DNA of 47,614 nt from a virus (Duplodnaviria > Caudoviricetes): the IMG/VR virus record IMGVR_UViG_3300049183_000012, positions 1 through 47,614 of that record. One strand, 5' to 3'. The position numbers and the translations under genes are program-made. How positions within the stretch are numbered: the first letter of the stretch is position 1; every line of letters begins with the position of its first letter. A model generated the notes under the pieces. It searched no databases. It was not told the origin of the DNA and saw only the letters and a program-made list of their open reading frames with translations. Of this stretch, positions 9,977 through 16,818 are shown in pieces.

Positions 9977-10456
9977 GTGCTGACGCTTGAAAGACTGAAG
10001 GCGCTGATGGCCTACGACCCCGAGACAGGCCTGTTCACGCGGCTCGACTTGCGCGGAGGTGCTACCGCGCAGCCATCGACGCTCGACGACATGGGATACG
10101 TCCGCGTCTGCATCGACTACAAGCGGTTCCGCCTGCACCGCTTGGCCGTGTTCTACATGACCGGCGCGATGCCAACCGGCCATGTCGACCACATCAACGG
10201 GGTCCGACACGACAACCGCTGGTCGAACCTGCGCGTCGTCTCGCACCGCACGAACATCGAGAACCGTAAAGGCCCGAACGCAAACAGCAAGACGGGACTG
10301 CTCGGCGTGCACTTCAGCCGCAGCGACAACAAGTTCAAAGCGCAGATAACCGTCAACTACAAGTTCGTCTCCCTCGGGCGCTTCGACACCGCAGAGGAAG
10401 CGAGCAAGGCCTACATGGCGGCGCGGCGTCGCCTCCACCAAGGAAACACCCTATGA
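9977..10456 (+). CDS. HNH endonuclease with AP2 domain
   Basis: YDPETGLF, HRLA, VDHINGVRHDNRWSNLR, LGRFDTAEEA. Confidence 0.9.
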   Translation: MLTLERLKALMAYDPETGLFTRLDLRGGATAQPSTLDDMGYVRVCIDYKRFRLHRLAVFYMTGAMPTGHVDHINGVRHDNRWSNLRVVSHRTNIENRKGPNANSKTGLLGVHFSRSDNKFKAQITVNYKFVSLGRFDTAEEASKAYMAARRRLHQGNTL

Positions 10457-11720: not shown

Positions 11721-12058
11721 GTGCGCTAGGACCTGCCTTTGATCGCTTCGCCAGGCTGGCGAAGCCCGCGCGCGAGCGCGACATTGAGGCGTACCTGAAA
11801 AAGCGGGTCAAAGAACTCGGCGGCGAGATCAGGAAGACCAAATGGGTCGGGCGCGTCGGTGCGCCTGATCGGCGCGTAATGCTGCCCGACCGGGCGCCGG
11901 TGTGGGTGGAATTGAAAAACCCCGAGACGATCGCGACGTTCCCCGCCAACGGGCACGAGCGGCAGCAGTTGCGCGAGATCAATCGCATGCGCCGCCTGGG
12001 CGAACTGGTCGAGGTCATTGGCACGATCGAAGGCGTCGAGGAGTTGCTTCGTGGCTGA
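11717..12058 (+). CDS. VRR-NUC nuclease
   Basis: ERDIEAYL, GAPDR, WVELK, downstream Q. Confidence 0.85.
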   Translation: MSALGPAFDRFARLAKPARERDIEAYLKKRVKELGGEIRKTKWVGRVGAPDRRVMLPDRAPVWVELKNPETIATFPANGHERQQLREINRMRRLGELVEVIGTIEGVEELLRG

Positions 12059-12581
12059 AGAGTGGCGCCCGGTCGTGGGGTTCGAGGGCTACTACGAGGT
12101 GTCGAACCTCGGGCGTGTTCGCTCGGTGACACGCGTGTCGCGCAACGGCAATGGGCCGTGCACGAAGCGCGGATGTCTTATGAAGCAGAGCCGGAACAGC
12201 GCCGGCTACCTCGCCGTACAACTGAGCCGCGACGGCGTGCGTGTGTCGAAGACGGTGTCAAGTTTGATCGGCGCCGCGTTCCTCGGTGCTGCTGAAGAGG
12301 TCGACCACCGCAACCGGCAGCGCGATGACAACCGACTAGAGAACCTGCGCCCGGCGACCACTCGACAGAACGCAGCGAACACCGGCCCGCGTCGACGCAA
12401 CAAGAGTGGCTACAAAGGGGTGTCGCCGTTTAAGACCCGGGACTGTTGGCGCGCCGTGATCTTCGTCGACGGCAAGCAGAAGCACCTCGGCTATTTCGAC
12501 GACCCGATCGACGCCGCGCGGTGCTATGACGCGGCGGCTAAGGCGCTGCACGGCGAGTTCGCGTGGTTGAACAATGCGTGA
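12051..12581 (+). CDS. NUMOD4-HNH-AP2 homing endonuclease
   Basis: EEWRPVVGFEGYYEVSNLGRVRS, VDHRNRQRDDNRLENLR, SGYKGV, HLGYF..AA..YD. Confidence 0.9.
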   Translation: MAEEWRPVVGFEGYYEVSNLGRVRSVTRVSRNGNGPCTKRGCLMKQSRNSAGYLAVQLSRDGVRVSKTVSSLIGAAFLGAAEEVDHRNRQRDDNRLENLRPATTRQNAANTGPRRRNKSGYKGVSPFKTRDCWRAVIFVDGKQKHLGYFDDPIDAARCYDAAAKALHGEFAWLNNA

Positions 12582-14587: not shown

Positions 14588-14601
14588 GCAACTGCTAAAT
14601 T
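14573..14601 (+). promoter_or_regulatory. xis/int promoter TTGTCC-N17-TAAATT with operator TGAGCAACTGCTAA (14585-14598)
   Basis: Exact 17-nt spacer; the ATG lies 7 nt after the -10 (leaderless geometry). Confidence 0.65.
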
Positions 14602-14608
14602 GCACAAC

Positions 14609-14902
14609 ATGGTCGCCACACAACTCACGCTCACGCAGCTCGCCGTCGCCCTGGGCATCAGCGAGCGGCAGGCCGCCCGGCTCGCGCGTGACGGACTGCC
14701 CAGCACGCCGGTCGGGCAGCGTGGTAAAAGGTACGACTTGGCCGAGTGCAAGGCCTGGCTCCGCGGAACGTACCAATGTCGATCAAGAGAACCAAAGCCG
14801 GCGGCTACGAAATCAATGTCTGCGTCAACTATCAGCGCGTTCACCGCCGCCTGCCGCCAGGTACAAGTGCGAGTGAAGCCAAGCGAGTCGACGCAGAGCT
14901 GA
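14609..14902 (+). CDS. Excisionase-like HTH protein
   Basis: LTLTQLAVALGISERQAARL..GLP...RYDLAECKAWL (MerR/Xis-like); immediately upstream of and overlapping int. Confidence 0.7.
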   Translation: MVATQLTLTQLAVALGISERQAARLARDGLPSTPVGQRGKRYDLAECKAWLRGTYQCRSREPKPAATKSMSASTISAFTAACRQVQVRVKPSESTQS

Positions 14903-15735
14903 AGGCCGCGCTCGGCAAGCGCGCCGGCCCGGTGATCCCGGGCGACCCCGGCATGACCGAAGTGATGGCCCTCTACATGGGCCACCTTGAGACGCTTCGC
15001 AGCCCCGACACCGCCCGCTACCACGCCCTGCGCATCGGCCAGTGGGTCGGCCGCTACAAGGCGTCAGAGGCCCGCGCCTGCGCGGCGCATATCGTCAAGG
15101 ACATGACCGGCGCCTACAAGCCGGCCACGATCAATCGCAGCCTTGGCGCCCTGAAGAAAGCGCTGCGCCTCGCGTGGGAGAGCGGCGCCACGCCGGTCAA
15201 CTACAGCGAGCACGTCAAGCGCTTGCCCGAGAATAATCAGCGCACGGTCTACCTGTCGCTCGAGCAGGTGCGCCACCTGGCCGACCACGCGAGCGAGAAC
15301 GTCCGCGCCGCCATCTGGATCGCGTTGCTGACCGGGTGCCGGCGCGGCGAGGTCTGTAAGGTGAGGGCGGGGGACATCGGCACCGATACGATCAAGCTGC
15401 AGGCTGGCAACACGAAGACCCTGCGCTACCGCGAGGTACCGATAACGCCGGCCCTGCGCCCATGGCTCAAGTACCTGCCACTGCCGATCAACTACGAGGG
15501 CGTGAAATCGGGCTTCCGACGGGCCCGCGAGGCGGCCGGCATGGAGAACGTCAACTTCCACGACCTGCGCCACTCGTGCGCGACCATCCTGCTCGGGCTC
15601 GACGTGCCGCTGCACGTCGTGCGTGACATCCTCGGCCACACCTCGGTGAAAACAACGGAGCGCTACACCCACGTGCAGGTCGCCCCGCAGCGCGCCGCGC
15701 TCGAAAAGCTGGGCGATGCAGTCAGCGCGGCGTGA
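14776..15735 (+). CDS. int: Tyrosine integrase
   Basis: TGCRRGE, KT, FHDLRH, LGH, TERY catalytic residues. Confidence 0.95.
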   Translation: MSIKRTKAGGYEINVCVNYQRVHRRLPPGTSASEAKRVDAELKAALGKRAGPVIPGDPGMTEVMALYMGHLETLRSPDTARYHALRIGQWVGRYKASEARACAAHIVKDMTGAYKPATINRSLGALKKALRLAWESGATPVNYSEHVKRLPENNQRTVYLSLEQVRHLADHASENVRAAIWIALLTGCRRGEVCKVRAGDIGTDTIKLQAGNTKTLRYREVPITPALRPWLKYLPLPINYEGVKSGFRRAREAAGMENVNFHDLRHSCATILLGLDVPLHVVRDILGHTSVKTTERYTHVQVAPQRAALEKLGDAVSAA

Positions 15736-16171
15736 GCTTCTTCCACGCAGGCACTCGCGGCGGTGCGATCAACGCCTCGCCTCGAACACCCTTGTTGTAG
15801 CGCTTGTAGAGGGTCGTGAACCCGATGCCGGTGCGCTTCGACCACGCCAAGATGCACAGCGTCTCGCCATTGATCTCGACCGGGCGCACATCCGTTCTGT
15901 TCTCCGCCTGCTGAAGCATCGTCGCCCAGCGGCAATTAGCCGGCTCGTAGTGCCCATTCGGGTCAATACGGTCAAGCGTGAGACCTTCGCGGTAGCCGTT
16001 CGCCTCGGCCCAAGCCTTGAACGCCGGGAAAGAACTCCATTCGTCGCACACCCGCACACCCTTACCTGCGTACCAACGTGCGTTGGTCCCGCGCGGATTG
16101 TTGCATCGCCAGCGCATACCGCGCCAAGTGGTGTAGAGCCGGGTCTTTGTCTCGCCGTGTCGTTCGTGCAT
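15722..16171 (-). CDS. HNH-family endonuclease
   Basis: RLY..W..MR.RC...Y.GKGVRVCDEW..F..F...LTLDRIDPNGHYEPANCRWAT. Confidence 0.8.
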   Translation of the reverse strand: MHERHGETKTRLYTTWRGMRWRCNNPRGTNARWYAGKGVRVCDEWSSFPAFKAWAEANGYREGLTLDRIDPNGHYEPANCRWATMLQQAENRTDVRPVEINGETLCILAWSKRTGIGFTTLYKRYNKGVRGEALIAPPRVPAWKKLTPR

Positions 16172-16179
16172 GCGCGAAC

Positions 16180-16368
16180 TTTACATCGGTTTCACCACTT
16201 GCGGCAATGGTGAAAAAGATGGTCCGACGCCGCCCGCCCATGTCCGCCAAGTCGTTGATTCGCAAGGCCTTTCCGGGCTGACAGGAGCCGCCGAACTGCC
16301 TTCACACGGCAGGCGCAATGCCTTAAGAATCAACAACTTAGACCGCGCTGGTGTAACGGCTGGTGCAA
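16180..16368. other. attP: core CTGCC-TTCACAC-GGCAG (16296-16312), two IHF sites, arm-type repeats
   Basis: IHF consensus WATCAANNNNTTR at 16248-16260 (-) and 16328-16340 (+); TGGTG(A/T/C)AA repeats at 16190-16197 (-), 16208-16215, 16349-16356 and 16361-16368; 7-nt overlap between inverted repeats. Confidence 0.75.
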
Positions 16369-16373
16369 AAGTT

Positions 16374-16448
16374 GGGCGGTTAACTCAGCGGTAGAGTGCC
16401 ACCTTCACACGGTGGAAGTCGCAGGTTCGACCCCTGCACCGCCCACCA
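16374..16448 (+). tRNA. tRNA-Val (anticodon CAC)
   Basis: Cloverleaf GGGCGGT/ACCGCCC, D arm ACTC/GAGT, anticodon arm CCACC-TTCACAC-GGTGG, T arm GCAGG-TTCGACC-CCTGC, encoded ACCA. Confidence 0.96.
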
Positions 16449-16503: not shown

Positions 16504-16818
16504 ATGCAGCTCGAAGACGAGAAGTTCGCTTGCCTGTTGCGGCGAGCACTGGCCGCGCCTGGCGGCGACGCGTGGCGTCAACTGTTCGCCCAGCAGCAAG
16601 GCGGAACAGCCGACGTTGCGTCGGCCATGTCCTTGATCAATGACGTGCTGCAGAAGGTCGCAGAAGGCGACCGCCCCGAGGAATACGAGCCCGCGATCCG
16701 GGCCACGCTGGTCGGCCTGCAGAAGAACGTGGCGGCCGAGTGCGCCAAGATCGCCGACGACGTTGACGATCTATCTGGCGTCGGCTACAGCATCAGCCTT
16801 CGGTTCGGGCTTCGCTGA
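16504..16818 (+). CDS. Hypothetical protein next to att
   Basis: GGGGGA RBS; helical ORF convergent with the lysis genes. Confidence 0.65.
   Translation: MQLEDEKFACLLRRALAAPGGDAWRQLFAQQQGGTADVASAMSLINDVLQKVAEGDRPEEYEPAIRATLVGLQKNVAAECAKIADDVDDLSGVGYSISLRFGLR

Follow-up and report, generated by a model that had tools for sequence, protein, structure and literature searches.

The general strategy of destroying a host tRNA gene and replacing it has already been published for actinophages, pelagiphages and Rhizobium phages. Guerrero-Bustamante and Hatfull (2024; PMC10865867) defined tRNA-dependent lysogeny of actinobacteriophages, and the available part of their text covers Fionnbharth (K4), Cluster L, Cain, Mollymur and Gaia. 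As described there, these phages share with the 47,614-nt stretch of DNA analysed here (the window) a tyrosine integrase, an attB in a tRNA gene and a phage tRNA of the same anticodon. Their cores are short (8–17 bp) and nothing is reconstructed, as in the window, and closely related phages have switched between the canonical and the replacement type, as has happened in the integrase family of the window. Unlike these actinophages, our phage has a betaproteobacterial host and tRNA-Val(CAC) as its target. The position of the tRNA also differs. According to the same account, the Fionnbharth tRNA has a promoter of its own and overlaps with gene 37, whereas the tRNA of the window abuts the arm sites and would come to lie behind the host 5' half. 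The Gaia tRNA is described as downstream of int.

For the Rhizobium phage vTRX32-1 group (PMC8631192), a 12-bp core inside tRNA-Leu has been described, together with a phage tRNA-Leu that lacks the motif. The authors propose that the phage tRNA replaces the host gene and prevents "super-integration". These are T7-like phages of Alphaproteobacteria with a Leu target, and the text, as far as available, states neither a position behind the host promoter nor switching between canonical and replacement sites. The pelagiphages HTVC025P, HTVC011P and HTVC019P are described as disrupting and substituting a host tRNA, with the phage tRNA near attP (bioRxiv 10.1101/410191). The phage tRNA of HTVC011P is placed at attR, upstream of the core, whereas ours would sit at attL; the tRNA-Cys of HTVC019P is far from attP, unlike the tRNA of the window. 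Lo5R7ANS-like prophages of Sinorhizobium meliloti (PMC11476347) have a core in the centre of the tRNA and inactivate tRNA-Leu(UAG), which is substituted by a foreign-looking allele. Target and integrase are different from ours, and the available text does not discuss position or promoter. Canonical anticodon-centred "A" site islands (Islander, PMC4383910) cross over in the anticodon loop, as do 49 of the best 80 loci of our integrase family, but the attP of the window lacks the 3' half that such islands are described to carry.

Mostly non-subscription texts, taken without figures or supplements, yielded no paper on a replacement that abuts the arm sites behind the host promoter. A literature search thin on subscription papers gave none on a Burkholderiales Val case, and no paper on repeated switching within one integrase family was found in the mostly non-subscription literature.

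Our results suggest that the attP of the window cuts a host tRNA-Val(CAC) gene without repairing it, and that the complete tRNA past the arm sites then stands behind the host 5' half, where it is likely transcribed from the host promoter. We give this reading as a whole a probability of roughly 0.72. Read from its sequence, the layout is a variant of tRNA-dependent lysogeny with four of its defining features: an integrase, an attB in a host tRNA gene (seen in relatives, and here indicated by the identity of the core), a short core with nothing rebuilt, and a phage tRNA of the same isotype and anticodon.

The integrase would cut the host gene at the anticodon loop, presumably with the 7-nt loop itself as the crossover, and the gene would not be rebuilt. 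The replacement would come to lie roughly 70 nt downstream of the host 5' half, and the promoter of the host tRNA would likely drive its transcription; its precursor would be a read-through RNA trimmed by RNase P. Its different stem would keep it from being a target of this integrase, and its presence would spare the lysogen the loss of its GUG decoder. Val(UAC) can read GUG by wobble, and E. coli is not known to have a Val(CAC). Hence, losing Val(CAC) may be costly rather than lethal.

The attachment site and its surroundings

The window represents a complete virus record and has direct terminal repeats. It encodes a terminase, a head-tail adaptor, a DNA polymerase and an endolysin, and a repressor-like ORF with a weak match is found at 2372–2920. 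The features around the attachment site are collected in Table 1. The catalytic residues of the integrase (R189, K214, H262, R265, H288 and Y297) are invariant in 45 aligned sequences. The small HTH-like ORF is a weak candidate for an excisionase; it matches phrog_66 (excisionase/regulator) with an E value of 7.8e-6 and phrog_57 slightly better (1.7e-6). Several HNH-like ORFs occur in the window (9977–10456, 12018–12581 and 15722–16171). The last of them sits between int and attP, and the orientation of att relative to int is there the minority one. A PAPS reductase-like ORF lies at 1209–2006 on the minus strand (phrog_424, E 5e-50).

Table 1. Features at and around the putative attachment site of the window
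Feature	Position	Strand	Remarks
Small HTH-like ORF	14600..14902	+	overlaps int start
Tyrosine integrase (int)	14776..15735	+	319 aa from ATG at 14776; PF00589 E 6e-24
HNH endonuclease, passenger between int and attP	15722..16171	-	phrog_3377 E 9.8e-51
Left arm-type repeats TGGTGAAA	16190..16215	.	copies at 16197 (-) and 16208 (+); putative arm function
Left IHF-consensus site	16248..16260	-	exact consensus match
attP core, Val(CAC) anticodon arm CTGCC-TTCACAC-GGCAG	16296..16312	+	without tRNA 3' half
Right IHF-consensus site	16328..16340	+	exact consensus match
Right arm-type direct repeat pair TGGTGTAA / TGGTGCAA	16349..16369	+	putative arm function
Complete replacement tRNA-Val(CAC)	16374..16448	+	CCA-encoded; anticodon stem CCACC/GGTGG
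104-aa ORF directly 3' of tRNA	16504..16818	+	no assigned function

The preliminary description of this DNA had noticed a lone Val(CAC) anticodon arm between inverted IHF sites and arm repeats, with no 3' half behind it, and a full tRNA-Val(CAC) with the same loop and another stem about 60 nt downstream. Both observations hold. The arm is the only match to its sequence in the window at up to three mismatches, and neither a T arm nor an acceptor 3' half was found after it. The common core is 17–18 nt long, and its loop TTCACAC (16301–16307) is the likely 7-bp crossover overlap. The sequence WATCAANNNNTTR, which we take to be the IHF consensus, occurs exactly twice in 47.6 kb (0.15 expected; none of 100 shuffles reached two), and both copies lie in a 23-nt inverted repeat around the core. 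The motif TGGTGHAA has five matches in the genome, of which four surround the core, at 16197 (minus strand), 16208, 16349 and 16361. It belongs to the same motif family as the arms of related phages, whose left-arm repeats are direct while those of the window are of mixed orientation.

The tRNA-Val(CAC), the only tRNA gene of the genome, begins 61 nt after the core, directly after the second right arm repeat and in the orientation of the core. It scores 66.9 bits in Rfam, its cloverleaf is the minimum free energy fold, and it has the isotype and anticodon of the target tRNA.

One could also argue that this complete tRNA is itself an ordinary attP, crossing over in its own loop or T arm and restoring the host gene, or that it is a translation aid, and that the upstream arm is a relic. 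The CCACC allele does serve as a target elsewhere, since a canonical island of another element sits inside a CCACC Val(CAC) gene in one genome (G153), and a translation aid would fit the codon usage, with GTG making up 164 of the 299 Val codons in six phage ORFs. Against this, the short core, not the tRNA, stands at the centre of the IHF and arm sites, and the lysogens of the family described below cross over at the short core, with the tRNA staying whole inside the prophage. We therefore consider this alternative very improbable.

Junctions and att types among relatives

The integrase family comprises 1628 proteins at E<=1e-30 among 8000 scored. Taxon names were attached to only two of 120 listed relatives, both betaproteobacterial. 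A comparison of the integrase with a phage collection gave no close cultured relative: 352 of 352 records fell below 60% identity, and the matches listed were 24–29% identical to the integrase of the window. To judge by its att sites, the family targets betaproteobacterial tRNA-Val(CAC). Among the best 80 of 295 related viral loci, 49 have a canonical attP with a Val(CAC) 3' half and 17 are of the replacement type, in which a whole Val(CAC) accompanies a short core. The att of the other 14 could not be read: 13 of these loci stop within 73 nt of int, and L086 shows no core. Not one of the 66 readable loci has a short core without a replacement. Contiguous 3' halves of the kind seen in the canonical relatives L002 and L003 are absent from the window. 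In canonical members such as L029 and L031, the loop can be where the match to the host starts, and this sets the 5' limit of the crossover; its 3' limit comes from the G001 lysogen, in which the phage and host sequences part four bases past the loop. The int matches of L044, L050, L068, L082, L085 and L097 span about 1290–1390 nt instead of about 950, which suggests insertions inside int.

By the terms of the preliminary description, its reading would fall if no host tRNA-Val carried the CTGCC/GGCAG stem. The stem is common: of 401 genomes sampled within the order to which G005 belongs, 174 have it in a Val(CAC) gene, a count that includes the unpublished genome G033. It is also found in 233 of the 246 gene copies of tandem genome loci among the loci listed.

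We scanned for a core followed by a tRNA in the same orientation with a gap of 65–95 nt, so that other layouts lay outside the reach of the scans. There were 22 viral loci (21 of attP type and one attL), at least 120 genome loci and at least 120 metagenome loci. The 143 genome matches listed consist of 131 host tandem genes, two cut tandem genes, seven attL-like loci and three with neither half; the 148 metagenome matches listed, which include some duplicates, contain 114 host tandem genes, 10 attL-like loci and 20 with neither half.

Five attL-like genomes among the matches listed (G001–G005) carry a family integrase, 46–60% identical to that of the window. Their attL reads host 5' half, core, arms and intact replacement, and at attR an orphan host 3' half follows arm repeats. 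A 3'-half pattern matches exactly twice in each of them, at the replacement and at the orphan half. The two junctions lie on one contig and strand 37.7 kb apart in G001 (a Thiobacillus MAG), 43.9 kb in G002 (Rhodoferax MAG), 35.8 kb in G004 and 48.4 kb in G005 (Azonexus MAG). The unpublished G003 has attL and attR on two contigs, and no conclusion rests on it alone. In a further provirus (G009), attL stands beside the host gltX. The host halves from attL and attR pair at seven of seven acceptor-stem positions in all six pairs (G001–G005 and G006). Rfam finds a tRNA at seven of seven attL loci (64–67 bits) and at none of six attR loci; unlike Rfam, ARAGORN called a tRNA at two attR chimeras.

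For the gene content of these prophages, 57 of 89 listed long ORFs were scanned. In G001, G004 and G005, the region between the junctions contains major head and terminase genes; G002 has a polymerase and an integrase and, among the ORFs scanned, no head gene. The G004 prophage also carries a reverse transcriptase (L386:14063-15430; phrog_1423, E 2.5e-113). In G008 the host gene is intact and the site is present in attP form. The target pattern is single-copy in G001–G006, of which five are MAGs that can miss tRNA genes, and many hosts have tandem copies.

The preliminary description had inferred that integration breaks the host tRNA and that the phage supplies a whole substitute, and had suggested looking for lysogens with a split gene rather than an ordinary duplication. 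The junctions of the relatives show just this split gene and intact replacement, and they bear out that the matching orientation puts the substitute directly behind the host 5' half. For the window phage itself, no attL or attR was found among the contigs aligned to the region, so that the claim stands on its relatives. The best-matching of these contigs may be the source of the window itself. We nevertheless regard split-and-replace integration of the window phage as very likely.

Several candidates were rejected. Apparent joints at 16313–16418 in the aligned contigs are ordinary host tRNAs. L197 and L275 (Bdellovibrionales MAG) carry an intact gene preceded by partial Val(CAC)-like 5' units at intervals of about 110 nt, with no family integrase match, and are not family lysogens; the repeated units are possibly scars of serial insertions. 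L182 (Burkholderia sp. L27) has a host 5' half, a 66-nt spacer and a divergent Val(CAC). We found no arms, family integrase or attR there and do not count it as a family lysogen, and it is possibly a fixed relic of a replacement event.

The replacement layout recurs across the family. Clustering at 95% inside each type left 36 canonical and 30 replacement integrases for a quick tree, from which 13 unclassified clusters and loci aligned over fewer than 250 residues (e.g., L070 and L074) were omitted. The att type requires 17 changes on this tree, 10 of them imposed by branches whose support is 95 or higher; shuffled labels average 22. The share of 30 in 66 is not a frequency, because pattern scans enriched the replacement type. 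Both types coexist among integrases that are 70–77% identical, and the nearest integrases to ours (L026–L028, 71–77% identical) are canonical.

The geometry is similar throughout. In all 30 members the replacement has the sense of the host gene and lies beyond the arms, 69–90 nt from the loop start; the scans imposed a gap of 65–95 nt, yet all 17 cases selected by their integrase fit it as well. Of 30 members, 12 have an exact right IHF match at a distance of 26–27 nt from the loop start, and right arm repeats lie at 47–49 and/or 60–61 nt in 27 of 30. Helical phasing behind the spacings of about 100 and 110 nt was considered and is unsupported, the extra length being mostly between arm and tRNA.

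Other elements also split and replace Val(CAC). They occur in G006 (Caballeronia; L395, 17.8 kb, with an integrase 24% identical over part of the protein), in G244 (L416:4136-16230, 12 kb, with different arm repeats) and in G287 (L418/L424, 12.7 kb, with a spacing of 193 nt). None of the three has the family arm repeats, and at attL each carries a replacement with the CCACC stem. A second orphan 3' half lies close to the contig end in G244 (L425).

Transcription of the replacement

No strong hairpin followed by a T run was found between core and tRNA in six attL loci and the window. With no strong terminator in the spacer, the simplest assumption is that transcription from the host promoter reads through. 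A strict scan of up to 80 nt upstream of six host 5' halves found a full promoter in none and a strong -10 in two. When the six attL precursors were folded, the replacement's own acceptor stem had a probability above 0.5 in three, and the host 5' end paired with the 3' end of the replacement in two.

The replacement could also have a promoter of its own inside attP, with the loop as -35 and AAGAAT as -10, and its proximity to the core would then reflect genome packing. A promoter-like site does exist at 16301–16330, where the loop TTCACA is followed 18 nt on by AAGAAT (9 of 12 matches, 0.2 expected), and the site in G002 is better still. Across the family, -10-like hexamers peak 16–18 nt after the loop, where 7 of 30 members have one. 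However, the other 23 lack it, only one of six attL loci has it, and it shares bases with the AAT of the positionally fixed IHF site. An own promoter has been demonstrated for the Fionnbharth tRNA (PMC10865867, available part). All in all, we find an internal promoter unlikely. If split-and-replace integration is accepted, transcription from the host promoter seems the probable outcome.

Int and the tRNA point in the same direction in the window, as in three of 30 replacement members. Hence, int would lie at attR, and the 104-aa ORF would lie behind the tRNA at attL. This ORF has no Pfam or PHROG match, and its Atlas matches, all below 0.8, are uninformative. A G-rich stretch precedes it just after the tRNA, and no plus-strand terminator was found before it. 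It may be co-transcribed with the tRNA from the host tRNA promoter in the lysogen.

The replacement stem and what the arrangement means

The preliminary description called the replacement recoded, with a stem changed so that it is no longer a core site. The stem does differ from that of the target, but de novo recoding has to be rejected. CCACC is a natural host allele that 42 of 401 genomes match (only G287 of these also matches the CTGCC pattern), 19 of 20 fetched CCACC loci look like ordinary host genes, and the tRNA of the window differs by 1 nt from a Val(CAC) gene that stands in tandem on metagenome contig L354. With the stem natural in hosts, "borrowed" fits better than "recoded": the replacement is an allele that occurs naturally in other lineages of the order. 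Tandem pairs with the target stem followed by a phage-type stem occur on L131, L134, L160, L166, L207, L209, L224, L331, L354 and L356; the second genes are possibly donors, backups or relics.

It is plausible that the different stem protects the replacement from the integrase of the window. The scan pattern left the stem free, and still none of 30 replacements has CTGCC/GGCAG or CTGCA/TGCAG; there are 10 stem variants, and five of the 30 change the first loop base. Strict stem recognition is contradicted by G001, where the host stem TCGCC/GGCGG was used as target, and some replacements (L093) are about as near to the target stem as that one. The stem could instead avoid deletion or mispairing between near-identical 5' halves at attL, or simply be the donor's allele, without any immunity. 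That the host 5' half pairs with the replacement in two of six predicted precursors would fit this explanation, as would the natural occurrence of the alleles. It does not easily account for the absence of the commonest allele from all 30 replacements (174 versus 42 of 401 genomes), nor for the five that alter the overlap itself while D and T arms are often host-like. We consider it doubtful, if somewhat less so than an internal promoter, and keep protection as our tentative reading of the stem.

A wider idea, which we hold tentatively and at slightly less than even odds, is that replacement is gated by integration. The spare tRNA would be promoterless until a host promoter is trapped, with at least 10 switches in the family, integrase-proof alleles and other elements acting alike. 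Should the promoter trap be real, expression of the tRNA, and perhaps of the ORF that follows it, would be a consequence of integration. Island finders that search for a tRNA together with a fragment of it would likely mistake the replacement for the restored gene, placing attL about 100 bp off.

The part of PMC10865867 available leaves open how half-gene attP and whole-gene replacement interconvert. With both att types among integrases 70–77% identical and ten alleles at hand, this interconversion and the stem bases that define a core become testable. With the junctions mapped here, tRNA-dependent lysogeny extends to a large family of betaproteobacterial integrases, which would explain the lone tRNA of these phages. 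If the wider idea of integration-gated replacement is true, decayed prophages could leave behind a swapped, integrase-resistant allele, which could be part of the roughly 10% of genomes with a CCACC gene.
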